Of a stretch of DNA of 64,000 nucleotides, positions 11,281 to 47,760 are shown in pieces. Position 1 is the first letter of the stretch. Every line of letters begins with the position of its first letter. A program made the translations under genes and the position numbers. This stretch comes from Thermoguttaceae bacterium (GTDB taxonomy: Bacteria; Planctomycetota; Planctomycetia; Pirellulales; Thermoguttaceae): positions 44,544 through 108,543 of the forward strand of contig JAFSMO010000059.1 in assembly GCA_017447865.1 (NCBI GenBank). The letters run 5' to 3'. Below the pieces are notes generated by a model that made no database searches, was not told the origin of the DNA, and saw nothing but the letters and a program-made list of their open reading frames with translations.

Positions 11281-11347
11281 ATGTGAAAGATTGGGGTTTT
11301 GCGGCCGGGCCGGCCGCGGACGGCGAGCCGCCGTCCCTCCGGATAAT

Positions 11348-11857
11348 TCACAGCACAAGCGACGGGGCCGAATAAACGCGGGCCTTCAGCTCGGCGTTCA
11401 GCATGTAAAGCCCCTTCGAGTCGGCGCCGAACAGTTCCATCTTCGTGATCATGTCGGCAGCGTTCTTTTCTTCTTCGCCCTGCTCCTTCACGAACCAGTC
11501 GAGAAGCTGCATCGTGCGGAAGTCGTGGACCTCGTACGCGGCGGCATAGATCCCGTTGATCAGCGACGTGACGAATTTCTCATGCTCGAACCCGGCCTTG
11601 AGCGGGTCCATGCTGTTCGTGAGCGTGCACTCCGGCTTGCGGATCGCCTCGAAGGTGATCTTCTCGCCGTTGTTCTGCAGGTACTGGTAGAAGAGCATCG
11701 CGTGATCGCGCTCTTCCATCGCCTGGATCCGGTACCAGTTCTCGAAGCCGTCCAGCCCGATCGAGCCGTAGTAATTGGCGAATTCCAGGTACAGGTACGC
11801 GGAATAAAATTCGTGGTTGATCTGTTCGTTGATGAGTTTTGCGACGTTGGCGTCCAT
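11348..11857 (-). CDS. Non-heme ferritin
   Basis: Ferroxidase-centre motifs are present (EQINHEFYSAYLYLEFANYY, QAMEERDHA). The length is 169 aa, and a GGAG Shine-Dalgarno sits upstream. Confidence 0.9.
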   Translation of the reverse strand: MDANVAKLINEQINHEFYSAYLYLEFANYYGSIGLDGFENWYRIQAMEERDHAMLFYQYLQNNGEKITFEAIRKPECTLTNSMDPLKAGFEHEKFVTSLINGIYAAAYEVHDFRTMQLLDWFVKEQGEEEKNAADMITKMELFGADSKGLYMLNAELKARVYSAPSLVL

Positions 11858-12027
11858 AAAATTCTCCTCTATTTAAAAGGTACGGGTTGAACATTTTTAT
11901 TAAGTGTAACCCTTTCTCAACCGTTTGTCAAGGGCCGGGAGGTACACAGTGCCGCAAATTTTCCGAAAATGCAAAGGAAAAATCGCCAAAAATTTTCACT
12001 TTTTTTCAAAAAAACCGAACCCCCCTG

Positions 12028-12215: not shown

Positions 12216-13277
12216 ATGAAAAAATTCGTCAAACGGCCGGCTTTCACACTGGTCGAACTTTTGGTCGTCATCGCCATCATTGGTATGCTGGTTGGTCTGC
12301 TCCTTCCGGCTATTCAGATGGCCCGTCGTACCGCCATGCGTATGCAGTGCGATAACAAAGTGAAACAGCTCACGCTGGCTGCGAACACCTTCGAAAGCTC
12401 GAAGAAACGTCTGCCCCCGGTCGGCCGCGCCCCTGGAGGCACCTCCTATGATGGAGTCAGCGGTTTCGTCCTCCTTCTCCCGTACATTGAACAGGATGCC
12501 CAGTACCAGCAGGTTAAAAATGACGTAAACAAGACCATGGCGTCAGCTTGTCAGTCAAGCCAGTTCTTGGATCTGGCGAGAACCTCTCTGCCGGCGTTCC
12601 GCTGCCCGGGTACTTCCACGAATCCGACCACAGATGAAGGCAGCTCGAGTGCTCCTGCAATTTCTAACTATAAATTTGTCGTGGCCTCGTTGTATGACCT
12701 TAACAGAGCTGCCGTACAAGGTGGTACAGGTCGGGGTTACGGCAGCGTGACCACGGCTGACGGAGCTTCCACGTACGCGAATAAAGGACGTACTTTGGGC
12801 GAGATCACCGACGGTACTTCCCACACGCTGCACATCACGGAATCGAATGAGCAGCACTACGCTCGTTGGGTCGTTGGTCAGGACTCCGGTATTTACACCT
12901 ACTGCACCAAGGGTGGAATTAGCGAGCCTGTTCTGCAGGGCACGAACAACTTCTATGCTCCGTCGGGATTCCAGCAGAACGAGCTGGGTGCGGATGCCTC
13001 CTACGCTGACAATACCCCGTGGACGAACCTGGATCGTGACTACACCCAGTCCCAGTACGAGTATGAATGGTCCTCGCTTTCCCAGAGTGGTGCCAGTACT
13101 TTGACTCTTGGCAGCACCTCCGATACGAAGTACGGCCCGAGCTCCGAGCACTCCGGCGTCGTGGTCCACTCCTTCATCGACGGTTCGGTGCATGACATCG
13201 ACATCGAAATCGACCCGGCGGTCTATTTCTTCGCCACGACCTACAAAGGCGGCGACCCGGGACTCGATGTTGAATGA
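12216..13277 (+). CDS. DUF1559 / H-X9-DG protein with a prepilin-type N-terminal methylation domain
   Basis: The N-terminus is FTLVELLVVIAIIGMLVGLLLPAIQ. The C-terminal HSGVVVHSFIDGSVH fits H-X9-DG. Position -1 of the prepilin site is Ala rather than Gly. This family is typical of Planctomycetota. Confidence 0.9.
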   Translation: MKKFVKRPAFTLVELLVVIAIIGMLVGLLLPAIQMARRTAMRMQCDNKVKQLTLAANTFESSKKRLPPVGRAPGGTSYDGVSGFVLLLPYIEQDAQYQQVKNDVNKTMASACQSSQFLDLARTSLPAFRCPGTSTNPTTDEGSSSAPAISNYKFVVASLYDLNRAAVQGGTGRGYGSVTTADGASTYANKGRTLGEITDGTSHTLHITESNEQHYARWVVGQDSGIYTYCTKGGISEPVLQGTNNFYAPSGFQQNELGADASYADNTPWTNLDRDYTQSQYEYEWSSLSQSGASTLTLGSTSDTKYGPSSEHSGVVVHSFIDGSVHDIDIEIDPAVYFFATTYKGGDPGLDVE

Positions 13278-13613: not shown

Positions 13614-14897
13614 ATGGATAAAGTACTGGCACTGATTCTCGGCGGCGGCCGCGGCACACGTTTGTATCCGCTCACGAAAGTACGTTCCAAGCCCGCCGTG
13701 CCTGTGGCGGGCAAATACCGTCTCATCGACATTCCACTCTCCAACTGCATTAACAGCGACATTTTGAAGGTTTATGTCCTCACCCAGTTCAACTCCATGA
13801 GCCTTCACCGGCACATCCGCAGCGCGTACACGTTTGACAGTTACCGCCGCGGTTACATTGAGATCCTGGCCGCGGAGCAGACCATCGACAATCCGAACTG
13901 GTACGAAGGCACCGCGGACGCCGTGAAAAAAAGTCTTCGTTACGTCGAGAGCAGTAACGTGGATTACGTCATCATCCTTTCGGGCGACCAGCTTTACAGG
14001 ATGGATTTCCGCGAAATGCTGAAAATTCACAAGGAGTCCGGAGCGGACGCGACGATAGCCTCGATCCCGGTCCGTGCGAAAGACACCGTGGGGCTCGGCA
14101 TTATGCGCGTTGATCCTGAAACGGGACAAGTGGGCGGTTTTCTCGAAAAACCCAAAAACGCGGATGAACTCAAGGGTTTTGAGACCGATCCCGAATGGCT
14201 CAACTCGCAAGGCATCAAGGCCAAAGGGCGGGACTACCTCGCGAGCATGGGCATTTACGTTTTCAATAAAAGCATGCTCACTCACGTCCTGAGCAAAACC
14301 GGGTACAAAGACTTCGGCAAAGAAGTCTTCCCCGCTCTGATCCACAGCAAAAAAGTGCACACGTACGTTTACGACGGCTACTGGGAAGACATCGGAACGA
14401 TCCGGTCTTTCTTCGAAGCGAATTTGAGCCTGGCGAAGCCGAACCCGCCGTTTAAAATGTTCGAGCCGACCGCTCCGATCTACACGAACGCCCGTTTTCT
14501 GCCTTCCACGACGATCACCGGCGCGACGGTTTCCGACTCGCTCATCGCGGACGGCTGCCACATCGGGCGCGGCGCGGTGATTGAAAACTCGGTCATTGGT
14601 GTGCGCTGCCAGATCGGCGAAAACGTGACGATCCGGAACTGCGTCATCATGGGCGCCGACTTTTACGACCACGAGGCGGAAGATTCGGACGCGGGGAACC
14701 CCATCCCGCTGGGGATCGGAACCGGGTCGTACATCGAAAACGCCATCATCGATAAAAACTGCCGCATTGGCAAGAACGTGCGGATTCTGAACACCAACCA
14801 CCTCGAAAATATGGCGGAAAACGAGTACTGCCAAATCGTAGACGGGATCGTCGTCGTGCAGAAAGGCAACTGCATCCCGAACGGCTGGGTGATGTAA
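13614..14897 (+). CDS. glgC: Glucose-1-phosphate adenylyltransferase
   Basis: The N-terminal LILGGGRGTRLYPLTKVRSKPAVPVAGKYRLIDIPLSNCINS matches the family, and a C-terminal left-handed beta-helix region is present. The length is 427 aa. Confidence 0.95.
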   Translation: MDKVLALILGGGRGTRLYPLTKVRSKPAVPVAGKYRLIDIPLSNCINSDILKVYVLTQFNSMSLHRHIRSAYTFDSYRRGYIEILAAEQTIDNPNWYEGTADAVKKSLRYVESSNVDYVIILSGDQLYRMDFREMLKIHKESGADATIASIPVRAKDTVGLGIMRVDPETGQVGGFLEKPKNADELKGFETDPEWLNSQGIKAKGRDYLASMGIYVFNKSMLTHVLSKTGYKDFGKEVFPALIHSKKVHTYVYDGYWEDIGTIRSFFEANLSLAKPNPPFKMFEPTAPIYTNARFLPSTTITGATVSDSLIADGCHIGRGAVIENSVIGVRCQIGENVTIRNCVIMGADFYDHEAEDSDAGNPIPLGIGTGSYIENAIIDKNCRIGKNVRILNTNHLENMAENEYCQIVDGIVVVQKGNCIPNGWVM

Positions 14898-14958: not shown

Positions 14959-17900
14959 ATGGCTAAATTGAATTTAATCCGTTTTGTGCTTTCTTTCTTT
15001 GCCGCTGCGGTTCTTCTGAGTGGCTGTATCAAGCCGCCGGTTGAAGATCGCAACGCGGAAATTTCAGACTCCGCCTCTTCTTCCGAAAAAACCGAAGCCG
15101 CTGCAACGGATTCCGAGGCCGCAAAAGTTGACTCCGCCGTGACGGACGCCGCGCAGGAATTGATCCCGGAAGCCCTTCGTGAGTTCACGACGCTCCCGAA
15201 AGACCGCTCGGCCAAATCGCTCGCCGCTTACATCGAGTCTCTGGACGGTCCGGAATTCCAGGCCGCCGCGATTTCCGTGATGCAGTCCCAGGACGAAAAC
15301 GCGAGAGCCGGTCTTCAGGTCGCCGCGCAGATCCTTCAGGAAAATAAAATGACGGCCGCCGACATGATCCTCGGCGCGGAAGACGCCACGGAGGACGAAT
15401 ACATGCAGGCCCTTTCCGTCCAGATGGAAAGCCAGATCATGAACGCCCAGCGGACGCAGGCTTCGCCGGAAAGTGTGAGTCTTCAGCTCAACACGCTGCG
15501 CGATAAAGTGGAAAAAGGGCGTTTCCCCAAACTCACCGAGCGTGTTGATTTGGTCAAAGGGTCGCTTGCCCTGATGGACAAAGCCGAGAAAATGGCGAAA
15601 GACGGCGAGCCGAAACCTGAAGAGTTGGACGCTTTCTACGACGAATACAACGCGCAGCTCGATAAAGTGCTGGCCCAGAAGCTCGACAGTCTGAACGTCT
15701 TCATGATGATGAACATCGCTCAGCTTTTCCAGACGGATTCCGCGAAAATGCTTCCGGTCTGCGAAAAAGTGCAGGCCGCGCTGGAGAAGAGTCCGGTGGA
15801 ATCGCTGAAATCGCTTTCCTCCGTGCTTCCGCAGCAGATCGAGGCCCTGAAAAAGGACGTTCAGCTTCAGGCCGTCACGCCGGAAGACGTGAAAGAAAAA
15901 GTCGCGAAATTCAAGGCCTTCCCCGAAGAAAAAACCCCGGCCAAACTGGCTGAGTACCTGAAACTCCTCGAAAGTGACGAATTCTACGAAACCATGCAGT
16001 CACTCCGTGAAGTACGCAAAGAGGAAGTCCAGAACACTCTGAACGAAGAATGGAAAGAAATCCAGAAAAACACGGAAGAGGCCGCAAAGGAAATTTGCAA
16101 GTCGGAAGACGCGACCGAAGAAGAATTCAAAACCGCTCTTGACTGGCGGCTGCGTCTCGTCATGGCCTATACCGCCGAGGAGGAAAAGCCCTCCTTCGCA
16201 CAGATGGAGGAACGTTACACCGTTCTGAAAGACGAACTGGAAAAGAGCAAATTCCCGCAGTTCGCGCCGCGTGCCGCCGTTTGTGCGCAGACCGCCGCGA
16301 TTCTGGAAAAGGCCGCCCCGATTTTTGAGGGCACCACCCAGCCCACGCCCGAACAGAAAGACGCGCTTTACCCGGATCTGCTCCAGCTCGCCGAGGACGC
16401 TGTGAAGGCTGACATGGTGGAAGGTCTTCCTCTGGAAGTACTCGCGCAGAGCGTTGGAATGTTCCAGGACGACAAAGAAAAGGCCAAGTCCATCCTCGAA
16501 ACGCTCATCAAGGGACTGGAAGGGAAAGAGGACGAAAACTCCAAAATGTTCTTGAACTCCCTGAAAATGCGCCTCCAGATGATCGAGAATCCGGAAATGG
16601 CCCAGGCGATGCAAAACGGCCAGAATCCGCAAGCCGCACAGACGCCCGCCCAGCCGGAACTCACCCCCGAGCAGATCGACGAGCTGAAAGCCAAACTCGA
16701 AGCCTTCGCGAAACTCCCGGAAGAAAAAACCGCCGCGGCCCTGGAAGCGTACGTCAATTCGGTCGATTCCCCGGAATTCCAGCAGACCGCCATGCCGCTC
16801 TTCCAGAAGCAGGACCCGGAACTTCAGTCCTGGCTGACGGAAACCATGACCAAATTGCAGGACACGGTAAAGGAAGCCCTCGGTCTTCTCTGCAAGGCGG
16901 AAGACGCGACGGAGGAGCAGTACAAAGACGCGCTTCGTTTCCGTCTTGACCTCATGCGGGCGGACAAAGCGCGCAAAAACATTGAGCCGGACTACGCCGC
17001 TCTGACCGAAGAAGTGAAAGCCGGCCGCTTCCCCGCGCTCGTTTCGCTCGTTGAGCTGGAATCGGCCACCAATTCCCTCATGGAAAAAGCCAGTACTCTG
17101 TTCAGCGGCGCCGAAGATCCGACGGCCGAGCAGAAAGACGAGCTTTACGCCGAGTTCCTCCCGTTCGTGGAAAAAGCCTGCGCCGCCGGCGAACTGAAAG
17201 GCCCGCAGCTTCAGGCCATCATGCAGCTCGCCTCGATCTTCTCCGACGACAATCAGAAGATGAAGGAGATCTGCGAAGCGCTCCTGAAGGGCCTGGAAGG
17301 AAAGGACGACCCGCAGTCCGAACAGCTGCGCGCTGTGCTTCAGAAGCAGCTCGACGACATCAAATTCGTGACCGAGCCGATGACGTTCACCGCACCGGAA
17401 GGAACGGATCTGAAGGGCCTGAAAGAATTGGTCTCGCAGAAAATGGAGATCATCATGCGGGCGGGCACGAAAGACCTTCCGACTGAAAAACTGGCCGAAT
17501 TCCTCGCCGCCGTGGAAAAATTCGGAAACGAGGATCTGACCGCCTACACCTCGTGGCAAATCGACTTGATCCACCTGATCCCGCTCATTCAGAGCGCGGA
17601 CTTCGACATCAATACGTTCAAGGAAAAATTCCTCGCCTGCGTGAAAACCGGCACGGAGAAAAACCTCTTTAATATTAATTGCCTCCAGATGTGCGTCCAG
17701 ATGGCCGCCATTTCGTCGCAAAAACCCGGCGTGAAATCCTCCGACGAAGGCAAAGCCGCGGTCGAGGAAATGCTCAACGCCATCCTGCCGGTCTGCGACT
17801 CGCTCGAAGTCACCGGCCGTGAAGAAGAGCTGAAAGGCCAGTTCCGCAAATCGATCGAAAGTTTCCTGAAGGAACTGAAAGAGGCGCCGGAAGAAGTCGC

Positions 17901-20900
17901 TCCGGACGCTCTGAACGCCGCGACGCAAGCGATCCCCGCCCTCCCGGAAGCCAACCCCAACGCCGAGACGGACGCCCTTCCGGCCGAGATCAATCTCGAC
18001 GACTCGCCGATCGAAGCCCCGAAAGCCGATGAAGCGCCGAAGGCTGAGGAAGCAGCCGCTCCTTCGGAATCGACCGCCGGCACCGAGGACGATGAAGACG
18101 AAGAACTCGAGGAAGACGATCTGGAAGAGGACGACCTGGAGGAAGACGAAGCTCCGAAAGTCGAAATTCCCGAACCGATTCTGAAAATCATCTCCCTGCC
18201 GGAAAACGCGACGCAGGAACAGTGCGTGGAATATTTGTCGATGCGGGACAGCGAGCAATTTCAGGACCTTGTGATGCAAATCCTGCAGTCCGGCAACCAG
18301 GGCCTCCTCATGGCCATTATGGGAAAAATGGAAGGGGACACGGTAACGGCTTGCCGGCAGATTCTAATCTCCCCAACCGTTAAAAAAGCGGATTTGGAAA
18401 GTGCTGTAAACATTCTGCTCGTCAAACTTCATAGCGAAACCGTAGATGACCCAGACGCTTTCACTGCCGGCTTGGCCGACCTGAAAAAATCCCTGAAAAA
18501 GACTCCGTTCCCGGAACTGACGAAAATCCTTGAAACCGCCAAGGCCTGGTACGCGTTCAAAACCAAATTGGACACTCTGGATGATGAGGATGAACCGACT
18601 GACGAGCAGCTCGACGCTTTGTTCCAGGAATACAAAACCATCCTTCCGACGGCCTTTGCTTCCGATTCCTGGAAAGGCTACGCGTCGCTCGCTTGCCGCG
18701 AGTGCTTTGAGGTTTTCCAGCAGGACGACGCCAAACTTCTGGAAATCGCCAATCTGGTCCTGAAAAACGCGGAAGGAAAGGAAGGCGAGGACTGGGACGA
18801 TCTGCGCAATGAAATGCAGGGCGTGGTCGATAAAATCGAGATGAAGACCAAGCCGGTCCAGTTCACCGCCAAAGAAGGTGCGACGCTGGACGAGCTGAAA
18901 GCCTCCGTTGATGAAAAGGTCCAGGCGATTCTGGAACTCGATGACCCGGCCGCAACGCTGAAAAAGCTGGACGAGTTGAAAACCGCCGTCGCAGGCGTGA
19001 AGAACGAGGAACTCAACGCCTATACCGCGTGGGAAACCAGACTCTTTAACTTCTTCATTGAACTCACACAGCCGGTGGAAATCGCGGACGGCGATGATGA
19101 TGACGAGACCGAAAAAGCCGAAACGGAACCGGACGTCATGAAGACTCTGAACGCTTTGATCGACGAAGCCGCGAAAGTGAAGCCGACCGAGCATTCTTCT
19201 CTCATGTTGTGTCTGGTCACGCTTTCCTCGATAGATTACCCCCAAGACGTAGAACCCGATGCGAAAGTCGAGTTGATCACGAAACTTCAGGAACTCGCGA
19301 AAAAGTTTGACTTTGACTCCGTAGATACGCAAAGACTCGTGCAAGCCCTGGAAGACCGAAAAGAGCGGATCCTGAACCCCGACGCCGACGAAAAAGACGA
19401 TGAAGAAGAGGAAAAAACGGAAGTTTCCACCGATTTCGTCCCGGCAGAAGGCGCAACGCTCGACGAGATGAAAGCCCAGGCGAGCAAGCAGATTTCGGCC
19501 CTCGCAAATTCCAAGGGCGACGTTCCCGCGAAACTGGACGCTTTTGAAGCCTCCGTCAAAAAAGTCGGGAACGACGAACTCAGCGCCTGCGTGAACTGGG
19601 AACTCGGAATTTTCCGCTTCCTCTTCGGGCTGCGCGAAGCGAAAGAACGTCCGGATCTGGATACTCTCGTGACCAAACTGACCGAAATCGCCGCCAGGGG
19701 AGTCGAGCTGAAAGCCTTCCAGGACGATTCGCTCCAGCTCCTGTTCCGGCTGAGCATGAACGTCGCTCCCAACACGAACGACCCGGAAGTCGGCAAAAAA
19801 CTCCTGACCACCATGAAAGCGGCCCTCGCGGCCTCGAAAGCGCCGTGGGCGTCCATGGCCGGCTCCGAGATCGACGGGATCCTGGTCAAGCTCAACCTCC
19901 CGGGCAACCCGATCGAACTGTCCGCGGAAACCCTCGACGGGAAAACGGTCAAAATTGAAGATTTTGCCGGGAAAACCGTCCTGATCGACGTCTGGGCCAC
20001 CTGGTGCGGGCCGTGCGTCGGTGAGATTCCGAACATTCGCAAGGCCTGGAACGCCTACCACGACGCCGGTTTCGAAGTCATTGGTCTGAGCATCGACGAC
20101 GACCTGAAAGAGCTGAAATCCTTCCTCAAGAAGAACGACGTTCCGTGGACCATCGTCACGCAGCAGAAAATGAAGGACACCGTTCATTTTGACGATCAGT
20201 ACGGCATCTCGGCGATCCCCGCGATGTTCCTCGTCGGCGCGGACGGAAAAGTCATCACGATCAACGCCCGCGGCCAATTGATGGAGCTTCTGGCGAAAAT
20301 CTACCCGAACGTCGAAGTTCCGGAGGATGAAGACGCGGATGAAGATGAGGACGAAGATGAAGACGAGGACGAAAAAGAAGAGGAAGTTTCCACCGATTTC
20401 GTCCCGGCAGACGGCGCGTCGCTCGACGAGCTGAAAGTTCAGGCGCACAAACAAATCATGGCCCTGATCAACGCCAACGGCCTGAATCTTGACAAAATGG
20501 ACGCTTTTGAAGCCTCTGTCAAAAAAGCCGGAAACGGGGAACTCGACGCCTGCGTGAACTGGGAACTCGGGATTTACCGTTTCATCCGGAAACTCGTTTC
20601 GGAAGACGGACTCGACATGAACGAGATGGCGGCCAAATTCACCGAAATCATCACCAAAGGGGTCGAGCTGAAAGCCATTCAGGAAGGGTCGCTCCGCGAA
20701 CTGGTCCAGATCGGCACGGTCCTCGCCCCCGACGCGGAAGATACGGAAATCGCCAAAAAGCTTCTGAACGCGCTGAAAGCAGCACTTGCGGCCTCGGACG
20801 TTCCGTGGGCGGAGCCGGCCGGCAAACGGATCGACGGGATCTTGGTCAAGCTCAACCTCCCCGGAAATCCGATCGAACTGACCGCGGAAACCCTCGACGG

Positions 20901-23562
20901 GAAAACGGTCAAAATTGAAGATTTTGCCGGGAAAACCGTCCTGATCGACGTCTGGGCCACCTGGTGCGGACCATGCCGTGCGGAAACCCCGAGAATTCGT
21001 GAAGCGTGGGACGCGTACCACGAAGCCGGTTTTGAAGTCATTGGTCTGAGCCTCGACAAAGATCTGGATAAACTGGGATCTTTCGTCGATGAAAACGAGA
21101 TCCCGTGGACCATCGTCACGCAGCAGAAAATGGAAGGCGTGAAATTTGACGACCAGTACGCCATCACGGGGATCCCCACGATGTTCCTCGTCGGCGCGGA
21201 CGGAAAAGTCATCACGATCAACGCCCGCGGCAAATTAATGGAGCTTTTGGGGAAAATCTACCCGGACGTGAAAGTCCCTGAAGAGAAAGAAGCCGACGAA
21301 ACGGACTCCGACTCCCAGGCCGGGATCGAAAAAAAAAATAAAGACTCCGTGACGGAGTCTGAGTCGATGGCTGGCACGGAAGACGAGGACGAGGAAGACG
21401 CGGACGCGCCGGAAGAAGCCAAGCCGGAGGAGATTTCGACCGACTTCGTTCCGCCGGAAGACGCGACGCCTGAAGCGCTTCGCAACGCGGTTTACATCCA
21501 GTTCATGCAGCTCGTTCAGAAAGCGCAGGGAAACCCGTTCGAGCCCGTTCTGAAGTTCCAGAAATCGGTGAACGCTCAGGGAAACGCCGACCTGACGGAA
21601 TTCCTGGACTGGAACGTGGAAACGCTCCGGTTCCTGACCGTCAAAATCCGGACCGCGACCGACATTCAGGCGCTGACCGATGAACTGGCCGAGCTTTTGA
21701 CCAAAGGCACAAAGATCAAGGCGCTGCGTCCCGAATTTCTCAGCCCGCTGACGCAGCTTTCCGTTCAGCTGATCAGTGCGCTGGACCCGCCTGCCGCGAA
21801 AAAACTCGCTGCTGCAATTCAGAACGCTCTGGCCTCGAGTGGCCAACCTTGGGCGCCGCGGGCCGCCAAAATGATCCAGGGGATCCTGACCCAGATGGAT
21901 CTGCCGGGCAAACCGCTGGACCTCGTCGCGAAGACCCTCGACGGGAAAGAAATCAAGATCCAGGACTTTGCCGGGAAAACCGTGCTGGTGGACGTCTGGG
22001 CGACCTGGTGCGGCCCGTGCCGCGCGGAATTCCCACGCATGGCCAAGGCCTACGAAGCGTTCCACGACGCCGGGTTTGAAATCATCGGCCTGAGCGTGGA
22101 CAAAGACCTGGAAAAACTCAAAGGTTTCGTCGAAGAGGAAAAAACGCCGTGGATCATCGCGACCCAGGACGGAATGGACCTTCCGGAATCTTTCTCCGAG
22201 AAATACGGCATCATGGGGATCCCCACGATGTTCCTCGTCGGTGCGGATGGAAAGGTCCTCACGACCAACGCCCGCGGCCGCCTGATGCAGCTTTTGGGTG
22301 AGATTTACCCCGAAGCCGCCGAAGCAGCCCGTAAAAAGGCCGAGGAAGAAACGCGCCTCGACGCTCCCGCCGATTCCGCCGCACCTTCCCAGTCGATGAG
22401 CACGACGGAAGAAGACGCTGAAGAAGCCGCGCAGGAACAGGCCGAAAAACCGGCGTCTGAAGCGAATATTCTGGACCAGTTCTCCACGCTCCCGAAGGAT
22501 TCCAGTCTCACCGCGACGAAAGAGTTTCTTGAAAGTTTCGACCAGCACGCTTACGAAATCCAGGCCGCGCTCCAGCAGTCCCCCAGCATGGAAGCCGCGA
22601 TGGAAAAGGTCCAGAAAATTCAGGACGTGCGGGCCCAGGCCGCAGACCTGATCATCGCGAATGAGCAGGCGACCGAGGCCGACCTGAAGCTTGCGGTGAA
22701 CATCAAAATTCAAGCCATTCTGTTCACGGCCCAGATCCAGAATGACGCCAAGGCGGCCGAAAAAGCGGACGCGGCTTTCTCGAAGCTGATCGCGGCCCTC
22801 GAAGCCCGTAAAGCCGAGGCGATCGTGATTCAGGTTCAGGTCGAACAAATCATCGCCGGCTCGATGCTGCTTGGCCGGATGCCGAACGCCGGGGAAATGG
22901 GCGCCACGCTCGAAAAACTGACGGCCGTCTGCCAGCGCGCCAAGGCTTCCAAGTGCATGAATGGCGACCTGATGGGCCAGTTCATGCGATTGATCGTTTC
23001 CGCGCACGATTTGGGCGTCGATGCCGGGAAAATCGAAACCGCTTGCACGGCTTTGCGTGAGGCGGTGCTGGCGACGGAAGACCCGCAGCTCATCAATACG
23101 GCCGACTTCATCACGGGAATGGCCCGCCGCGCGATGCTGAAAGGGAAGCCGATGGAACTGGTCGGCACGACGCTCGACGGCCAGACGGTCGACATTCAGA
23201 AGGACTACGCCGGAAAAGTCGTGCTGGTCGATTTCTGGGCGACCTGGTGCAACCCGTGCGTCATGGAGCTGAAAAACCTCGAGGATAAATATTACGCCGC
23301 GTTTCACGAAAAGGGCTTTGAAATCCTCGGTTTCAGCATCGACGCGGACCGGAACCAGCTCGCGGCCTTTCTGGAACGCCGCAAACTCCCGTGGCAGACG
23401 ATTTGCCAGCAGGGCGATTTTGACCCGGTTTTCTACTACGGGATCCAGGCGATTCCGTGCCTGATCCTCGTCGGCCCGGACGGAAAAGTCATCCGCGAGA
23501 TCCCCACGATGCGCCGCGACGAAGTCCTCTCCGCCGAGCTGAAGAAGATTTACAGCGAGTGA
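14959..23562 (+). CDS. Giant lipoprotein (2,867 aa) with four TlpA/ResA-type thioredoxin-fold domains on repeated helical modules
   Basis: The lipoprotein signal is MAKLNLIRFVLSFFAAAVLLSG-C. There are about 5 copies of a helical module (F.xLPxxxxxxxxxEYLxSxDSxEFQ). These are followed by repeated units of the form STDFVP...helical...Trx domain. Highly acidic linkers (DEDEDEDEDE, EDDLEEDDLEEDE) separate the units. Confidence 0.9.
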   Translation: MAKLNLIRFVLSFFAAAVLLSGCIKPPVEDRNAEISDSASSSEKTEAAATDSEAAKVDSAVTDAAQELIPEALREFTTLPKDRSAKSLAAYIESLDGPEFQAAAISVMQSQDENARAGLQVAAQILQENKMTAADMILGAEDATEDEYMQALSVQMESQIMNAQRTQASPESVSLQLNTLRDKVEKGRFPKLTERVDLVKGSLALMDKAEKMAKDGEPKPEELDAFYDEYNAQLDKVLAQKLDSLNVFMMMNIAQLFQTDSAKMLPVCEKVQAALEKSPVESLKSLSSVLPQQIEALKKDVQLQAVTPEDVKEKVAKFKAFPEEKTPAKLAEYLKLLESDEFYETMQSLREVRKEEVQNTLNEEWKEIQKNTEEAAKEICKSEDATEEEFKTALDWRLRLVMAYTAEEEKPSFAQMEERYTVLKDELEKSKFPQFAPRAAVCAQTAAILEKAAPIFEGTTQPTPEQKDALYPDLLQLAEDAVKADMVEGLPLEVLAQSVGMFQDDKEKAKSILETLIKGLEGKEDENSKMFLNSLKMRLQMIENPEMAQAMQNGQNPQAAQTPAQPELTPEQIDELKAKLEAFAKLPEEKTAAALEAYVNSVDSPEFQQTAMPLFQKQDPELQSWLTETMTKLQDTVKEALGLLCKAEDATEEQYKDALRFRLDLMRADKARKNIEPDYAALTEEVKAGRFPALVSLVELESATNSLMEKASTLFSGAEDPTAEQKDELYAEFLPFVEKACAAGELKGPQLQAIMQLASIFSDDNQKMKEICEALLKGLEGKDDPQSEQLRAVLQKQLDDIKFVTEPMTFTAPEGTDLKGLKELVSQKMEIIMRAGTKDLPTEKLAEFLAAVEKFGNEDLTAYTSWQIDLIHLIPLIQSADFDINTFKEKFLACVKTGTEKNLFNINCLQMCVQMAAISSQKPGVKSSDEGKAAVEEMLNAILPVCDSLEVTGREEELKGQFRKSIESFLKELKEAPEEVAPDALNAATQAIPALPEANPNAETDALPAEINLDDSPIEAPKADEAPKAEEAAAPSESTAGTEDDEDEELEEDDLEEDDLEEDEAPKVEIPEPILKIISLPENATQEQCVEYLSMRDSEQFQDLVMQILQSGNQGLLMAIMGKMEGDTVTACRQILISPTVKKADLESAVNILLVKLHSETVDDPDAFTAGLADLKKSLKKTPFPELTKILETAKAWYAFKTKLDTLDDEDEPTDEQLDALFQEYKTILPTAFASDSWKGYASLACRECFEVFQQDDAKLLEIANLVLKNAEGKEGEDWDDLRNEMQGVVDKIEMKTKPVQFTAKEGATLDELKASVDEKVQAILELDDPAATLKKLDELKTAVAGVKNEELNAYTAWETRLFNFFIELTQPVEIADGDDDDETEKAETEPDVMKTLNALIDEAAKVKPTEHSSLMLCLVTLSSIDYPQDVEPDAKVELITKLQELAKKFDFDSVDTQRLVQALEDRKERILNPDADEKDDEEEEKTEVSTDFVPAEGATLDEMKAQASKQISALANSKGDVPAKLDAFEASVKKVGNDELSACVNWELGIFRFLFGLREAKERPDLDTLVTKLTEIAARGVELKAFQDDSLQLLFRLSMNVAPNTNDPEVGKKLLTTMKAALAASKAPWASMAGSEIDGILVKLNLPGNPIELSAETLDGKTVKIEDFAGKTVLIDVWATWCGPCVGEIPNIRKAWNAYHDAGFEVIGLSIDDDLKELKSFLKKNDVPWTIVTQQKMKDTVHFDDQYGISAIPAMFLVGADGKVITINARGQLMELLAKIYPNVEVPEDEDADEDEDEDEDEDEKEEEVSTDFVPADGASLDELKVQAHKQIMALINANGLNLDKMDAFEASVKKAGNGELDACVNWELGIYRFIRKLVSEDGLDMNEMAAKFTEIITKGVELKAIQEGSLRELVQIGTVLAPDAEDTEIAKKLLNALKAALAASDVPWAEPAGKRIDGILVKLNLPGNPIELTAETLDGKTVKIEDFAGKTVLIDVWATWCGPCRAETPRIREAWDAYHEAGFEVIGLSLDKDLDKLGSFVDENEIPWTIVTQQKMEGVKFDDQYAITGIPTMFLVGADGKVITINARGKLMELLGKIYPDVKVPEEKEADETDSDSQAGIEKKNKDSVTESESMAGTEDEDEEDADAPEEAKPEEISTDFVPPEDATPEALRNAVYIQFMQLVQKAQGNPFEPVLKFQKSVNAQGNADLTEFLDWNVETLRFLTVKIRTATDIQALTDELAELLTKGTKIKALRPEFLSPLTQLSVQLISALDPPAAKKLAAAIQNALASSGQPWAPRAAKMIQGILTQMDLPGKPLDLVAKTLDGKEIKIQDFAGKTVLVDVWATWCGPCRAEFPRMAKAYEAFHDAGFEIIGLSVDKDLEKLKGFVEEEKTPWIIATQDGMDLPESFSEKYGIMGIPTMFLVGADGKVLTTNARGRLMQLLGEIYPEAAEAARKKAEEETRLDAPADSAAPSQSMSTTEEDAEEAAQEQAEKPASEANILDQFSTLPKDSSLTATKEFLESFDQHAYEIQAALQQSPSMEAAMEKVQKIQDVRAQAADLIIANEQATEADLKLAVNIKIQAILFTAQIQNDAKAAEKADAAFSKLIAALEARKAEAIVIQVQVEQIIAGSMLLGRMPNAGEMGATLEKLTAVCQRAKASKCMNGDLMGQFMRLIVSAHDLGVDAGKIETACTALREAVLATEDPQLINTADFITGMARRAMLKGKPMELVGTTLDGQTVDIQKDYAGKVVLVDFWATWCNPCVMELKNLEDKYYAAFHEKGFEILGFSIDADRNQLAAFLERRKLPWQTICQQGDFDPVFYYGIQAIPCLILVGPDGKVIREIPTMRRDEVLSAELKKIYSE
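19891..20306 (+). other. Thioredoxin-like (redoxin/TlpA) domain 1, WATWCGPC
   Basis: The sequence is GKTVLIDVWATWCGPC...GFEVIGLSID...IPAMFLVGADGKV. The CGPC codons lie at 20005..20016. Confidence 0.85.
20851..21264 (+). other. Thioredoxin-like domain 2, WATWCGPC
   Basis: This is a near copy of domain 1, offset by 960 nt. Confidence 0.85.
21895..22311 (+). other. Thioredoxin-like domain 3, WATWCGPC
   Basis: The sequence is GKTVLVDVWATWCGPCRAEFP...IPTMFLVGADGKV. Confidence 0.85.
23134..23559 (+). other. Thioredoxin-like domain 4, WATWCNPC
   Basis: The sequence is GKVVLVDFWATWCNPCVMEL...IPCLILVGPDGKV. This divergent copy sits at the C-terminus. Confidence 0.85.
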
Positions 23563-23582: not shown

Positions 23583-23650
23583 AGTTTTCAGTTTTCAGTT
23601 CTCAGTTTTCAGTTCATCAACTGCCAACTGAAAACTGGCAACTGAAAACT
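23583..23650 (+). repeat. Long imperfect hairpin built from GTTTTCA heptamers and their complement
   Basis: The 5' arm AGTTTTCAGTTTTCAGTTCTCAGTTTTCAGTT (23583..23614) pairs with the 3' arm AACTGCCAACTGAAAACTGGCAACTGAAAACT (23619..23650). That is 32 positions with 4 mismatches and 1 G-U. It lies 20 nt after the stop of the giant gene, and no U-tract follows it. Confidence 0.8.
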
Positions 23651-23660
23651 CCCACCTCCC

Positions 23661-23690
23661 AATTCCTAATTCCTCATTCCTAATTCCTAA
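23661..23690 (+). repeat. Tandem heptamer array (AATTCCT)x4 immediately upstream of the EF-G start
   Basis: The array reads AATTCCT AATTCCT CATTCCT AATTCCT AATT and ends 7 nt before the ATG at 23698. It is preceded by CCCACCTCCC. Confidence 0.85.
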
Positions 23691-23697
23691 TTATAAA

Positions 23698-29006: not shown

Positions 29007-31688
29007 TCAATGGCAGGCGCGTTTCCAACCGAAAATCGCCAGACCGAAAACCAGAAGCACGAGCGTGGACGGCTCCGGGACCTGGTACGGACCCGTGAGG
29101 GCCGAGTAGCCCCACGCCTGCCCCAAGGCCGCCAGCGTACCGTACTGGGAGGTCATGGGACCCGCGCTTGCGTTTTCCAGCGAGCTGGCCAGTTCCGCCA
29201 TTTGAGGAACCGTCTCACTGGTGGTGGAACCTAAAACCCACGAAACGCCCTCATTCACCTCGATTTTCTCTTTGAGCTGCTCGCTCGTGACCGCCGCGCC
29301 GTCCTGAAGCCACAGAACGGCCGTCTCACCATCCAGACCATCCAGCGCGGCCTGAAGGAGGGCCAAAGCTTGGGATTGGTCGGTGGTCGTCGCGTCCACA
29401 AACGCCACGGGAACGTCGGGGAACGCTTTGGTCAAATACTCGCCCGTCTCGGCCCACGGCGTACTGCCGCCGGTGAGGGAAATTTTGCCGGTCACGGGAT
29501 CCAACGTCACGACGTTCCCCGACGTGGCCCAGACCGTTCCGCTGCGCGTGTCCGTCTTTCCGGCCGCCACCAGAACGTCACCGACGCCGATCTTGCCAGT
29601 ACTCGCGGAAGTCACGAGATTCCCGGCCGCGTCAAACGCCTGGATCTGGAGCGCGTGCCAGCCAGTCCCGAGAGTCACCGACGAAGTGAACGTTTTGCTG
29701 GCCGCGTCGAGCGTGGCGTCCGTCCAGTCCGTGCCGTTTTCGGAAATTTTGATCGTCGCGATCGTATCGTCCGCGATCGCCTGCCAGCTTCCCGAAATGG
29801 TCGCGGAAGCATTTCCGTCCGCGCCGCGCTGGAAGAAGCAGGGGCTGGTCGGATTCAGGACCGCGTCAGACTCGTGGATGTACGAGTAAATATTCGCCAC
29901 GGCGTAGTTTCCATTATTAATATTGGCCGAAAAAGTCCAGTCACGGCTGCTTCCCCCGGAATTCCCCAGACCGATCCCGGCATTATTCGCTTTTCCCCAG
30001 CCGCAGTAGCTGAAGAGGGTGGTTTTGGTGTCCGCGTCGAGGATCTGGAAACTCCCGTAGCCCACCGCGTTCTGGAACCCCGTGTCCCAGTAGTCGTACA
30101 TGCCGTTCGCGCCGGCGCTGTAGTCACCGCGCCCGAACTCGATCCGCCCGCCCGAGATCCCGGACCGGGAAATCGCCGCGACGTTCGATTCAACGCTCAG
30201 ATTCCGCACGCTGGTCAGCAGCGGCGCGCCCGTGGGGAGGCCCACGTCGCTGAGTTTCGTCGAAAACGGATCCATGGAAATGAGCGCGTAGGAATAATTC
30301 CCCGCTTTATCCACCAGCTCGACGTAGTAGCCGACCCGGTCGTAAATCGCGTTGGAATAGGCGTCGGACGCGTCGTAAGTGTAAGGGATCTTCGTGACGC
30401 CGTTGTTGCCGTAGCCGGCCTTGCCCGTTCCCGCGGCGTCCAGGGCATGGATCAGCGTTCCGCCGGCCTCAACGATCTTGGAGGGGACTTCGACCATCTG
30501 CACTTTATCGATCGTGACCGTGCGGTCCGCGTCGCCTCCGCCGTTGATCGTATTCGTAAACCGGAGCTTCGTCACGGCATCCGAAGCCGTAAAGGTCCCC
30601 GCGAACGTGTAGTTTGAGGCCGTATTGGCCGTGACGAGCTGACGGTCGAGGAACGTTTTCGTCGCGGTGGCGCCCTCGGCGGTGATGCTCAGCTCGGCCG
30701 TATCATTTTTCCGCGCGTTATACTTGCACGTAACGGCGTAGGTTTTTCCGGGGGTCGTTCCGATCTCCTGATAAAGCGACGCGGTCACCGGGTTCGCGTA
30801 GCCCTGGATTGCCGCGACGTACGTCCCGTCCGGGATCGGGCCGGCATGGAACTCACTCGCGGAGGGGCGCAAATAGTAACCGGCGGCAGAAGAACTTTCG
30901 TACTTCCAAATCCCCGTGTTTTCGAAATTCCCGGAAGTCGGCGCGCTGGTGGCCCAGATGATGTACTGGCCGTGGCCCGACGCGTACGTGTACGAGCCGC
31001 TTTCAAAACTTCCGTCCTGCACGAGATTCTTCAGGGGCTGGGCCGGGGAAAGGGTCAGCGCGACGTTCCCGATGAAAAGCGTTTTGTCGCCGCCCGTGGA
31101 AGAGTGCGCGATGCTCAGTACGGCCGTGCTGGAATCTGCCGTGAACGTGGTGGAATATTTCTGGAACGGAAGGGTCCCCGAGTTTCCGAAAGTGGTATTC
31201 TGAAGCGGAATTTCGGAAGCGCCGGTGATCGAAGAAACGACCGTGACCGTGTTTCCTTTCCGCGCGTTATACTCGTAAGACGCGATGTAGAGTTTCCCCG
31301 GTTCCAAACCGCTGACGGTTTGCGAGATCGCCGCGTTTCCCGACGCGTTGAAAACCTGAAGCCCCACCGCGTTACCGGTGCTCGGGACGGATCCCGTCCA
31401 GCCGGAAGTCTGATTGGAGCGGACGTAATAACCAAAAGTATCCGGAGTCCCCGAGGGGTCTGTGGTCGCGTAAGCCCAGGTCGTCCCGGCAGTATCGAGG
31501 TAGCCGGAAGGATTGCTCCCCGCTCCGCCCCAAATGATGTAAATGTCATTTTGTGAGGAGATTTTGTAAGCGCCCGTAAACGTTCCGTCCGTAATAAGGT
31601 TTTCGGCCCCCCACGCCGGTACGCTGACCAGACCGAGCATTACAAAAACGACAAAAAACCAACTGCGATAAAAAGGACGCATGTTCAT
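29007..31688 (-). CDS. PEP-CTERM sorting-domain protein with repeated carbohydrate-binding-like beta-sandwich modules
   Basis: The C-terminus VPEPSTLVLLVFGLAIFGWKRACH is a PEP-CTERM anchor. The likely start is the ATG at 31688 (MNMRPFYRSWFFVVFVMLGLVSVPAWG), with AGGAG 7 nt upstream. Two DUF642-like repeats are present (YEYNARKGN, CKYNARKND). Confidence 0.85.
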   Translation of the reverse strand: MNMRPFYRSWFFVVFVMLGLVSVPAWGAENLITDGTFTGAYKISSQNDIYIIWGGAGSNPSGYLDTAGTTWAYATTDPSGTPDTFGYYVRSNQTSGWTGSVPSTGNAVGLQVFNASGNAAISQTVSGLEPGKLYIASYEYNARKGNTVTVVSSITGASEIPLQNTTFGNSGTLPFQKYSTTFTADSSTAVLSIAHSSTGGDKTLFIGNVALTLSPAQPLKNLVQDGSFESGSYTYASGHGQYIIWATSAPTSGNFENTGIWKYESSSAAGYYLRPSASEFHAGPIPDGTYVAAIQGYANPVTASLYQEIGTTPGKTYAVTCKYNARKNDTAELSITAEGATATKTFLDRQLVTANTASNYTFAGTFTASDAVTKLRFTNTINGGGDADRTVTIDKVQMVEVPSKIVEAGGTLIHALDAAGTGKAGYGNNGVTKIPYTYDASDAYSNAIYDRVGYYVELVDKAGNYSYALISMDPFSTKLSDVGLPTGAPLLTSVRNLSVESNVAAISRSGISGGRIEFGRGDYSAGANGMYDYWDTGFQNAVGYGSFQILDADTKTTLFSYCGWGKANNAGIGLGNSGGSSRDWTFSANINNGNYAVANIYSYIHESDAVLNPTSPCFFQRGADGNASATISGSWQAIADDTIATIKISENGTDWTDATLDAASKTFTSSVTLGTGWHALQIQAFDAAGNLVTSASTGKIGVGDVLVAAGKTDTRSGTVWATSGNVVTLDPVTGKISLTGGSTPWAETGEYLTKAFPDVPVAFVDATTTDQSQALALLQAALDGLDGETAVLWLQDGAAVTSEQLKEKIEVNEGVSWVLGSTTSETVPQMAELASSLENASAGPMTSQYGTLAALGQAWGYSALTGPYQVPEPSTLVLLVFGLAIFGWKRACH

Positions 31689-32008
31689 TGGTAAACTCCT
31701 GAAATTCTCTTTATTAATTATGTTTAAAATTATGTGTCGTTTTTTCTCTTTGTCAACAAAAAAATGGAACAAAAATTAAAAAAATGAGAAATTTTCAATA
31801 TTTTTTTCAGTTCTAAACGAAAATCCTGTTTTCTCTCTGGTATTAAACTGAAAATTTTGCTAAAATCCTCGCCAGAATGGATTATGCGCCTCCGTCTTGA
31901 GCTTTCCTGAAAGCACGGCGAGAACAAGCCAAACCTTTTTCAAATCAGGCCATTTTGGGGAAAATCAGAATGGGCGCACCTTAAAATCCCGAGTTGGAGT
32001 TAAATTAG

Positions 32009-39879: not shown

Positions 39880-42800
39880 TCAGGAAATCATCTTTCCAAG
39901 CGTGACTTCCAGTTCTTCCGTTTCTTCTTTCTTCACTTCATCCAAGACGTCATCCAACTCGAACGCCTCGTCTGACGTACTGAGAGGGGCCTCATTCGTC
40001 ACAGGCTGGGGAAGGGCCTCCTCGAGCAGTTCAGCACGCAAGGCGTTTTCTTCCTCGATCTGCTTCTGGAAATCAGGAGCTTGAGCCGTCCAGTCATTGA
40101 CGTATACGTTTCCGAAGGACGTCTGGAACGCCGGGACGGACTCGGAAATTGCTGCCGCCGGTTCAGAAACGGAAAGCGCCGCCTCGGGTTCAGGGGCCGG
40201 AAGTACCACAGGCTCGGGTTCCGAAAGTACCGCAGGCTCAGGGGCCGGAAGTACCGCCGGCTGTGCGGTTGGATTGCCCCAGTCTTCGGTCAGCGTGTCA
40301 GCGTAAACGATGGAACTTCCTTCCTTTTTGCCAAAATTCCGCGCGAAAAGAACCAGGTCGTTGATCTCCACCCTGCCACCGGCGTTGAAATCGGCCGCGC
40401 CCGTGATCGTGAATGGAACGGCCGGCTGGGCAAACACTCTCGCGAAAGCCACCAGGTCATTAATGTCAATGGTTCCCGAGTCGTCAAGGTCATAAACCAC
40501 AGGATAAACGGACGGAAGATCCTGCGTCGTGTTTTCGACCGTGGAGACGACCGTATCGTTCGTGTCTGCCATTACCACCGAATTTTCGATCTGGATTCCA
40601 ATCTCGACTCCCTCAACGGCGTAAGTTTCCGAAAGGTGCACACCGTCTTTTTGAGCGTAGAACTGAATACTTCCAAGAAGCACGTGATCCCCCACGCCTT
40701 CCAGGTCGCAGACCCCGACGTTTTCCACTCCCGCTTTCACGGAGGCCTGGATCTGGATTTTGTTCTCGTTGGCCACTTTCGTGACGGTCACGGAGCTGAA
40801 AATCGTGGAATCGTATTTCACGGAAATGTTTCCGTTCTTTATCGGATTGAATTTTGCCGGGTCGTAGGCAATCTCCGCTGTGTAACTCTTCAGACCGGTT
40901 TCAGTCGCGGAAAGAACGGAGGCCCAGACTTCGACCCAAACGTTCTGCCACTCGTCGATCCACTTTTCACTCGCGGGAATTTCCTGCCGCGATGCGCCGC
41001 CCGATTCGCCGGTTTCATCCAGCGAAGACGTTTTGCGGATGACCAGCGCCGTTTCTCCCTGAACATTCAGATTGATCGTTTGTTCCAGAGCGTCCAGTTG
41101 CTCGACCGGGCAGCCGGAAACCATCGAAACCGACGACGAATCCAGGAAAATCGAGATCTGATCGCCCGTTCCAGCCAAAACCGAACCGGCGGTCCATTTC
41201 AGAACGTTCCCATGGCGGGTAAGTGTGCCGGTGGACGTAATATTCACCCACGAATCGGAGCCGCTGGCCTTTTTCAGGATGGTCACGCTCGCGTTGGCGT
41301 TTTTGAGGTTTTCCTCGAAAGTCCAAATCGCTTCCAGCGAATCTTCCCGGGCGCGGATTTTCTGCTCCACGGAGGTTTGCGCCAGGGTGAGGGTCTGAGT
41401 CGCCTGCGCGTCCGTAAGGGTCAGAATGGAACCGTCCACCGAGCAGAAATCCTCGGCGCGAATCGTCAGCGTGGCCGTAGTTTGCGTAAACTGTTTGTAC
41501 GCGAACGTGAACGTGGCGGTCTTTCCATCGGCCGAAAGCGTAAAGCTGGAAGCGGAAACGCCATCGATCTGGACCGAAGATTTGGAAATCAGATCCGCGC
41601 GGACCGGTTTTTCCAAGGAGAGCGTCACGGTCGTCGGACGAGTGGTCAAGGTTTCCGAAATGGCGGCTCCGTTGACCTTCACACCGGTTTCCGTCAGGCC
41701 GAACGAGAATTCGTTCTGGGTGATTCCCTGGACCGTCATCACGTAGTCGCACTCGGCGCTCTCCGCCGTTCCGACGTAGAGGTAATATTCCGTTCCCGCC
41801 GTCGCCGAGTAGGTGAACGTCCCATTCTGAACCGTCCCCTGGATCTCTGTCCCGGCCTCATCGACGAGAAACACTTCAAGGTCTTCCACGTTTCCTCTCA
41901 ATCCCGCGCCGAACACCACAGAAATGGAGGACTCATCAGCCGTGAAGTGATAAATGTCCATCTGCGTGTCGTAAGGCCAGACAGTACTGGAGCAAAGCGT
42001 CAACTGCGTTTCCGGAGACGAGGCGGACGCGCCCGTCACGTAAAGGAAACCTTCGCGGATCTGAACCGCCTGAGGAAGTGCCCCGATGTTTTCCGAAATA
42101 ACCAGATCAGAAAGGATGAATCGGTCGTCTGCCGGAGACGCTTTTCTGAAGTCGAACGTGTGCAGTGCAATGCCGGAAGTATAATCTCCCGGCGCGGAGG
42201 CCGCAACCAAAACGCCGTTCTCGGAGGTGACGGAGTAGCCAAACCCAAGATCCGAGTCTTCCGCCAGACGCATGGAAGAACCGTTCATGGCAAGCACGAA
42301 AACCATCCCGTTGGAACCGGATTCCGTGGTCCACGTGCCGGTCTGCTGATTGTAAGCGCTGTACGTATTGGCTAAAGGCGCGCCGACAACGACCAGACCG
42401 GCGTCATCAATCGCCACGGAGTAACCGAAATTGGACCAGTTCTCACTCCACGAGAGCTGATTGTTTTGGATCACCGGGGTCTGCCCGTCCGCTTCCAGTT
42501 TAAGGTTCACCTGCCTGGCCAGCATCTGCGTCAAATTGTACGTTTCCGGTGTGGTTTCGCCTCCACTCAAGTCAAACAGATACGACATTTGGTAGGCCGT
42601 TTGCGAACCGACTACCAGAAGGCCCAAAGACTCCGAGTAATCCATGACGAAGCCGAAATCGTGGGAGCTTCCCGGGTTTTTAATCGTCTGGAACGGCGTG
42701 GAATTTCCTGCCGCGTTGATGGAATCCAAATCAAAGAGGTACACCGCGCCGGTCGTTCCATCGCCGTTGGAGTGACCTGGAGCCGAAATCGCCAGCGTGG

Positions 42801-47601: not shown

Positions 47602-47760
47602 ACTTTTTTCTTTCCTGTTTCTTAATCGGATAAAAGGCCGTAATGAAACAACCAAAGGAACGGGGCGGGGCTCAAACCCACTCCGTTCGCTTTGCCTGTT
47701 ACGCTGCGGCCTTCCTAACCAATTTCAGGGACGATGATTTCGCCGCGTCCCTGTTCCTGA

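Follow-up and report, generated by a model that had tools for sequence, protein, structure and literature searches.

Extracytoplasmic thioredoxins of the TlpA/ResA/CcmG (DsbE)/StoA class are membrane-tethered proteins with a single domain and ~130-250 amino acids (aa), and they share a CxxC active site, a cis-Pro loop and a Glu at the third position past the second Cys (+3 Glu). The lipobox-anchored Etrx1 and Etrx2 of Streptococcus pneumoniae are likewise extracytoplasmic thioredoxin-fold proteins of ~185 aa and one domain; their genes share operons with ccdA and msrAB, and electrons can pass from CcdA through a thioredoxin-like Etrx lipoprotein to MsrAB2 (PMC3914529). DsbD has been described as an electron hub (PMC3322552). 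Several CxxC thioredoxin-fold domains on one chain are found in the PDI family, soluble proteins of the endoplasmic reticulum that combine PDI-class heads with J-domain or b-domains and flexible linkers: ERdj5 has six thioredoxin-like domains, four of them with CXXC, and acts as a disulfide reductase (PMC10591012). Here we describe a protein of 2,867 aa which carries four TlpA/ResA-like domains (heads) and ten helical modules. It is encoded by the forward strand at positions 14959-23562 of a 64,000-nucleotide stretch (the window) of a Thermoguttaceae bacterium contig (JAFSMO010000059.1). The literature that we searched holds no characterised bacterial protein of multi-TlpA architecture, in line with an earlier note on this DNA, whose author knew of none.

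The open reading frame (ORF) comprises 2,867 codons and its translation has no internal stop; a GAGGA Shine-Dalgarno-like motif lies 9 nt 5' of the ATG. The translation opens with MAKLNLIRFVLSFFAAAVLLSGC, in which a basic n-region and a hydrophobic core are followed by a lipobox (L20-S21-G22-C23), and the N-terminus reads MAKLNLIRFVLSFFAAAVLLSG|C. LSG|C conforms to the bacterial lipoprotein pattern [LVI][ASTVI][GAS]C after a signal peptide, from which acylation is predicted. The lipobox is kept across all orthologs as LTGC, FTGC, MTGC or LVGC and is present too in small relatives. With this signal peptide and lipobox, the giant protein is predicted to be exported and tethered to a membrane, as TlpA/ResA-like proteins are. 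The mature chain would have a mass of ~314 kDa, a pI of ~4.5 and a net charge of about -230.

The gene has internal repeats and was assembled from short metagenome reads, and one ortholog (L012) is broken by a 100-N scaffold gap. These features would fit an assembly artefact or a decaying pseudogene, with collapsed or expanded repeats or a hidden frameshift, a scenario that the earlier note had raised against its own claim. It is effectively refuted. An identical 2,867-aa product, with the same neighbours, is found on 18 contigs of independent metagenome assemblies made with several assemblers. The most similar internal copies, units B3-T1 and B4-T2 (Table 1), share 78% nucleotide identity and a longest common exact word of 88 nt, a divergence that short reads can resolve. 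The module order is collinear in orthologs from eight species-level metagenome-assembled genomes (MAGs) of Thermoguttaceae/Planctomycetia, whose sources include goat colon, water-deer rectum and other gut samples. The ratio of nonsynonymous to synonymous substitution rates (dN/dS) against the closest ortholog (L005/P0001) is 0.20 overall, 0.05-0.15 in the heads (0.05 in T3) and 0.10 in the headless module B1; module A4 evolves faster (0.49). Since all modules are constrained, the whole length is under purifying selection as protein, and the ORF is one real, selectively maintained polypeptide.

The repeats were mapped by self-BLAST after masking of 100-aa chunks, by local hidden Markov models (HMMs) and by hhalign profile-profile comparison. 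They belong to one helical module family with ten copies, five in each of two forms. Form A has ~235 aa and opens with LP..(9)..EYL.S.DS.EFQ. Form B has ~155 aa, opens with FTAPEG/FTAKEG or STDFVP, and is equivalent to A without its first 70 residues or so: B aligns to A positions 74-227 (hhalign probability 95.9%, E 5e-9). With T for a redoxin head, the layout can be written AAAB-AB-BT-BT-BT-AT, which runs from the lipobox through A1 A2 A3 B1, an acidic linker, A4 B2, B3-T1, B4-T2 and B5-T3 to A5-T4 (Table 1). The linkers are 38-83% Asp+Glu.

This layout revises the one proposed in the earlier note, which had distinguished two separate helical repeat types where hhalign finds a single family. 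A module of ~200 aa opening with STDFVP or FTA(P/K)EG had been placed before each redoxin domain. STDFVP modules do precede T1-T3, but they measure ~153 aa, the FTAPEG/FTAKEG modules (B1 and B2) are headless, and the C-terminal T4 is preceded by the long LP...EFQ-type module A5. About five LP...EFQ copies had been counted upstream of the redoxin domains; five exist, but the fifth is this A5 and only four lie upstream. The poly-acidic linkers between units were described correctly.

Table 1 Features of the giant gene, its surroundings in the window and the gene that follows it at orthologous loci.
Feature	Sequence	Coordinates (nt)	Strand	Basis or remarks
Ferritin gene, called in public assemblies	window	11348-11857	-	E 1e-33
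ORF overlapping the ferritin gene	window	11291-11890	+	longer than the ferritin gene; without family
DUF1559/N-terminal-methylation protein	window	12216-13277	+	
glgC-like glucose-1-phosphate adenylyltransferase (ADP-glucose pyrophosphorylase)	window	13614-14897	+	Pfam
Signal peptide with lipobox (aa 1-23, LLSG|C23)	window	14959-15027	+	read from translation
Helical module A1 (aa 66-300)	window	15154-15858	+	self-BLAST, local HMM; without Pfam family
Helical module A2 (aa 305-545)	window	15871-16593	+	self-BLAST, local HMM; without Pfam family
Helical module A3 (aa 568-805)	window	16660-17373	+	self-BLAST, local HMM; AlphaFold2 model of A3-B1
Helical module B1 (aa 807-985), without redoxin domain, invariant Cys 894/908/912/946	window	17377-17913	+	local HMM, AlphaFold2
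Acidic Pro-rich linker (aa 986-1066; 38% Asp+Glu; short tandem DNA repeats)	window	17914-18156	+	composition
Helical module A4 (aa 1067-1297)	window	18157-18849	+	self-BLAST, local HMM
Helical module B2 (aa 1299-1475), without redoxin domain	window	18853-19383	+	self-BLAST, local HMM
Unit B3-T1 (B3 aa 1489-1642; redoxin T1 aa 1643-1785, WCGPC 1683)	window	19423-20313	+	Pfam, local HMM
Poly-acidic linker (aa 1786-1809; 83% Asp+Glu)	window	20314-20385	+	composition
Unit B4-T2 (aa 1810-2105, WCGPC 2003)	window	20386-21273	+	self-BLAST, local HMM
Unit B5-T3 (aa 2159-2452, WCGPC 2351)	window	21433-22314	+	Pfam, local HMM
Unit A5-T4 (aa 2500-2867, WCNPC 2764)	window	22456-23559	+	AlphaFold2 model, Foldseek, ortholog conservation
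Long hairpin right after the stop codon	window	23583-23650	+	dG -33.7 kcal/mol, z -8.1, ~29-bp stem, no U-run
PEP-CTERM-anchored DUF642 protein (921 aa)	window	29007-31772	-	
Giant ORF (2,591 aa)	window	39880-47655	-	FG-GAP repeat
Giant ORF (3,220 aa)	window	47761-57423	-	Big_13, Big_9, cadherin-like and EF-hand matches
OmpL-like beta-barrel porin (BBP2)	window	57954-59453	+	
~280-aa downstream gene	L007	11736-12581		
~280-aa downstream gene	L008	13001-13933		
~280-aa downstream gene	L009	10589-11476		
~280-aa downstream gene	L012	19402-20211		
~280-aa downstream gene	L014	9798-10634		
~280-aa downstream gene	L016	5101-5976		

Pfam places four stretches each of Redoxin, AhpC-TSA, Thioredoxin_8 and Thioredoxin on the protein (whole-protein E 1e-78 to 1e-31), with 262 bits for Redoxin (PF08534), 248 for AhpC-TSA (PF00578) and 208 for Thioredoxin_8 (PF13905) against cut-offs of 26-27. 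Across 15 module+head units, both active-site cysteines, the Pro between them, the +3 Glu, the cis-Pro loop (I-P) and a G.DGKV strand are invariant. The +3 Glu aligns with the Glu80-type residue of ResA (Bacillus anthracis ResA, PDB code 4nmu), the Glu that characterises the ResA active site.

An alignment of the same 15 units was used for structure modelling with AlphaFold2, and T4 was the sole head modelled. The model of A5-T4 (predicted local distance difference test (pLDDT) score 91.5, predicted template modelling score (pTM) 0.82) has eleven helices followed by a thioredoxin fold. In a Foldseek search of the PDB, the last ~135 residues alone found matches: ResA, Bacteroides TlpA-like proteins, StoA, CcmG and Etrx2 (4hqz). 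The template modelling score (TM-score) is 0.75-0.83 over ~135 residues for the ResA and Bacteroides TlpA-like structures; ResA 4nmu gives a TMt of 0.82-0.83 and a root mean square deviation of 2.4 Å. Matches in a PDB sequence search were also confined to the thioredoxin part. Each head is a member of the broad TlpA/ResA-like thioredoxin family, which is recognised by a thioredoxin fold, a CxxC motif and a cis-Pro loop.

In these respects the earlier note was right. It had described a lipobox-anchored lipoprotein with four complete TlpA/ResA-like redoxin domains, bearing WATWCGPC three times and WATWCNPC once at the C-terminus: the L-S-G-C after the signal peptide is kept in the orthologs, both profiles that it had named (Redoxin and AhpC-TSA) give four stretches above threshold, the motifs are WCGPC three times and WCNPC at 2764, the cis-Pro loop and the ResA-Glu80-equivalent Glu are in place, and the CxxC segment that was modelled, that of T4, adopts a thioredoxin fold matching ResA. 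Its statement that TlpA/ResA-type proteins are usually single-domain also agrees with our searches: the closest sequences to T3 from outside the family have 116-248 aa, one ordinary domain and at most 50% identity. The search with T3 alone returned these outsiders and not the module-bearing family members.

The AhpC-TSA matches (248 bits, summed) and additional GSHPx matches could suggest a peroxiredoxin or thiol peroxidase. This is effectively excluded: the active site is the thioredoxin-type WCxPC and not a peroxidatic Cys in a PxxxT/SxxC context, all peroxiredoxin NCBIfam models (AhpC, Bcp, Prx) stay below their cut-offs even when summed over the four heads, and the structural neighbours are thiol-disulfide oxidoreductases.

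Assignment within the TlpA/ResA-like family is less direct. ResA and TlpA are the top-ranked NCBIfam models for the whole protein, and ResA is the best model for every head. The ResA model (NF002854), however, gives T1-T4 only 86, 85, 88 and 73 bits against a cut-off of 170, and the whole-protein score of 307 bits is a mere sum of the four heads. Per-head scores are also below the cut-offs for the TlpA equivalog (NF047696; 43-77 bits vs 230), DsbE/CcmG (TIGR00385; 40-53 vs 123) and StoA (NF041202; 41-60 vs 210). The heads therefore lie outside the curated ResA, TlpA, DsbE and StoA families.

These scores bear on whether the protein could be a cytochrome c maturation thioredoxin in the role of ResA or CcmG, with heads that reduce apocytochrome CxxCH motifs and helical modules that act as CcmI-like apocytochrome chaperones. 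The rank of the ResA model and the invariant ResA-Glu80-equivalent Glu are consistent with such a role, as are a multihaem cytochrome gene three genes from the one-unit positional ortholog P0015 and the presence of hemA within the window. We nevertheless consider it unlikely. The per-head scores fall well short of the ResA and DsbE cut-offs; no resBC/ccsBA genes, linkage to which marks the ResA subfamily, were found in the window or at any orthologous locus, and no ccm genes are adjacent at any locus. Four heads and 2,867 aa would be superfluous for this job, and the number of heads varies from one to four among close species. In contrast to the TlpA, ResA and StoA systems, genes for cytochrome maturation, Sco/Cox or sporulation are not linked to the giant gene.

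The helical modules have no Pfam family: at E<=1 they gave sub-threshold noise only, including a single TPR_5 match in A3 (E 0.18, 12.5 bits vs a cut-off of 24.2), and no sequence relative was found in the PDB. The AlphaFold2 model of A3-B1 is all-alpha, with 19 helices (pLDDT 90.8). Foldseek found no match to it in the PDB at E<=1e-3; weak generic matches (E>=4.5e-3, TM-score <=0.35) were to designed repeat proteins, 14-3-3, importins and alpha-solenoids. With sub-threshold Pfam scores and no Foldseek match at E<=1e-3, the module is not assigned to TPR, 14-3-3 or spectrin.

CGPC is the classical reducing thioredoxin dipeptide. Together with the fold of the modules, it bears on a further possibility: that the protein assists folding in the envelope as a PDI/ERdj5-like catalyst or as a holdase, a periplasmic "chaperedoxin" whose heads oxidise or isomerise disulfides while the modules bind unfolded clients. 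Like ERdj5, it combines several CxxC heads and non-catalytic modules on one chain. The headless modules are under strong purifying selection, and there are Cys-less members of the family (see below) that recall the redox-inactive domains of PDI proteins. The likeness is one of design, with homology limited to the thioredoxin fold. The heads are of TlpA/ResA class and not of PDI or DsbA/DsbC class (all 50 fold matches listed are bacterial TlpA/ResA/CcmG-type proteins, and the one PDI-related NCBIfam match, to pdi_dom, reaches 57.9 bits where the cut-off is 107.2), their dipeptide is of the reducing type, and no TPR or known chaperone fold was detected in the modules. There is no TPR above threshold beside the thioredoxin domain, as there is in the chaperedoxin CnoX/YbbN. 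We regard a folding catalyst or holdase as improbable.

Six cysteines of A3/B1 (aa 645, 772, 894, 908, 912 and 946; window 16891-17796) are invariant in seven orthologs, and B1, which has no redoxin domain, carries a CLQMC (CxxxC) pair. These residues may serve as structural disulfides, bind a metal or make up an internal redox site.

Among 1.84 billion representative proteins, a profile search with the helical module returned 27 at E<=1e-3 and 14 at E<=1e-10, and nearly all of the 27 pair the module with a redoxin domain. The members that carry a source name are from Planctomycetia or Pirellulaceae, and their annotation goes no further than "TlpA disulfide reductase family protein" or "redoxin family protein". 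Helical module plus redoxin is a rare, planctomycete-restricted building block, and sequences of the family are already in public databases under these generic names. The literature searched has no description of the multi-head layout, the tenfold helical module or the one-locus series of one to four heads.

The family spans a wide range of sizes. The smallest members consist of one A-T unit (P0015, with 480 aa, P0027, P0030 and P0032; 392-480 aa) and others have two heads (P0011, with 1,053 aa, P0012, P0014 and P0020; 891-1,093 aa); all eight, uncharacterised proteins from Planctomycetia, have the same type of module and head as the giant, and most have a lipobox. P0006 (1,400 aa) combines AAAB with AT. 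The collinear orthologs of the MAGs are giants of 2,529-2,823 aa with two or three heads. The largest ortholog, L012, has ~3,680 aa, at least 13 helical modules and three heads, all WCGPC, with a true length that is uncertain because of the 100-N gap at 15344-15443. The four heads of the window protein are the maximum among the family sequences fetched.

P0015, P0011, P0006 and all giants are encoded directly downstream of a glgC-like gene, which identifies them as positional orthologs of one gene that grew by internal duplication. P0015 and P0011 thus share the locus of the giant with one or two units in place of ten modules and four heads. The module+redoxin unit pre-existed as single-unit proteins, and the giant grew from a one-headed gene at the same locus by tandem duplication of the module+head unit and of modules alone; the number of heads, from one to four, differs between species. 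Unit B4-T2 of the window protein is missing from the closest ortholog. No member with an available C-terminus lacks the terminal A-T unit, which usually carries WCNPC (WCGPC in L012), and internal WCGPC units number from zero to three per member.

Six distant members (P0018, P0021, P0022, P0023, P0025 and P0026) have lost both active-site cysteines, with for example TWSDPT or INADEP in place of WCGPC, which makes them redox-inactive forms of the unit.

The giant versions are all from MAGs of animal-gut Thermoguttaceae/Planctomycetia, and head number expands within this gut clade. Along with the long, flexible, polyanionic tether, this could suggest a digestive reductase, with tethered heads that break the cross-links of disulfide-rich polymers which the cell takes up or meets, such as gut mucins and plant or feed proteins, and thereby open them to hydrolases. 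All evidence for this is circumstantial, the giant gene has no linked glycosidase or protease genes, and the supply of electrons to a site at the surface or outer membrane would be left unexplained; we give the idea little credence.

The interpretation that we favour, with moderate confidence, is that the giant protein acts outside the cytoplasm as a lipid-anchored thiol-disulfide reductase with several heads, which receive electrons from a donor of CcdA/DsbD type. The earlier note had likewise proposed a tethered, multi-headed reductase, one that could deliver reducing power to several client proteins or over a distance. The chain would be exported by Sec and then lipid-modified at Cys23, as its signal sequence suggests, and the mature protein would present ten all-alpha modules, four of them joined rigidly, through their C-terminal end, to a TlpA/ResA-class head. 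Acidic linkers, presumably disordered, connect the units, so the protein is expected to behave as a flexible tether that is negatively charged and bears four catalytic heads. The active site is of the reductase type (WCxPC, +3 Glu and cis-Pro loop), so by the chemistry of the family the heads are most likely kept reduced by a CcdA/DsbD-type transporter. Reduced heads could then pass electrons to disulfides or to oxidised Cys or Met (Met via Msr enzymes) of cell-envelope proteins, for which the single-domain TlpA, ResA and pneumococcal Etrx lipoproteins provide precedents.

The headless module copies could add reach or a binding surface. Even one-unit proteins combine the helical module with a head, and the headless copies of the module are strongly constrained, which makes a docking or specificity element more likely than a spacer; judging from these sequence patterns, the module probably helps the head to dock clients or to select them.

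Several points weigh against this picture of a lipid-anchored reductase. The direction of electron flow (reductase vs oxidase or isomerase) is not readable from sequence, and the lipid anchor may sit in the inner or the outer membrane. Searches of the larger ORFs of the 64-kb window and of the flanks of the orthologs found no genes for CcdA/DsbD, Msr, Dsb, CcsBA/cytochrome synthase or another redox partner, and the giant gene has no counterpart of the etrx operons. The Cys-less heads of distant members imply that the unit of helical module and thioredoxin fold can also work without redox chemistry, and the six invariant cysteines of A3/B1 have no explanation in the proposed mechanism.

A more elaborate version, which we offer as speculation and hold to be doubtful, is a redox "fishing line": the heads would relay electrons from head to head, from the CcdA/DsbD donor across the enlarged planctomycetal periplasm, and the terminal A-T unit, perhaps with the Cys cluster of B1, would reduce distant targets, either outer-membrane proteins or disulfide-rich polymers that the cell imports to digest. 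Duplication would then have tuned the number of heads and modules to distance or to substrate load in gut species.

In the window, the giant gene is preceded by genes for a ferritin, a DUF1559/N-methyl protein and glgC and is followed by fusA (Table 1). A glgC gene is directly upstream of the family in L005-L010 and L012-L016, for versions from 480 aa to ~3,680 aa, with gaps of 53-131 nt where measured. A promoter-like site lies 5' of glgC, and no terminator-like site was found between glgC and the giant gene in the window. The adjacency may be plain synteny or a functional link. The hairpin after the stop codon is made of TTTTCAGT/ACTGAAAA repeats and is followed by short TTCCTAA-type repeats at 23650-23697 and then fusA; it could be a terminator, a 3' stabiliser of the transcript or a regulatory element.

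In most orthologous loci a gene of ~280 aa without Pfam match abuts the 3' end of the giant gene (41-63% identity). The window, L005 and L006 have no homolog of this gene, and the giant gene is followed there by fusA or other genes; given its absence from the window, it is not an obligatory cis partner. Elsewhere in the window, the two adjoining giant ORFs on the minus strand probably encode huge surface or adhesin-type proteins. The PEP-CTERM/DUF642, BBP2 and DUF1559 genes are typical planctomycete envelope features. The clear ferritin gene overlaps a longer ORF on the opposite strand.

No long-standing open question hinges on the giant protein; the object itself is well supported, and its function is what we infer. 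Known extracytoplasmic thioredoxins are small, single-headed and client-specific, and here the same kind of domain occurs in a naturally polymerised, four-headed form on a 314-kDa tether. The locus offers a ready evolutionary series of one, two, three and four heads, together with an all-alpha domain that has no Pfam family or solved relative. If the helical module does serve in client recognition, it would represent a new way to specify the substrates of envelope reductases and would provide a handle on the envelope redox biology of the poorly studied gut planctomycetes.

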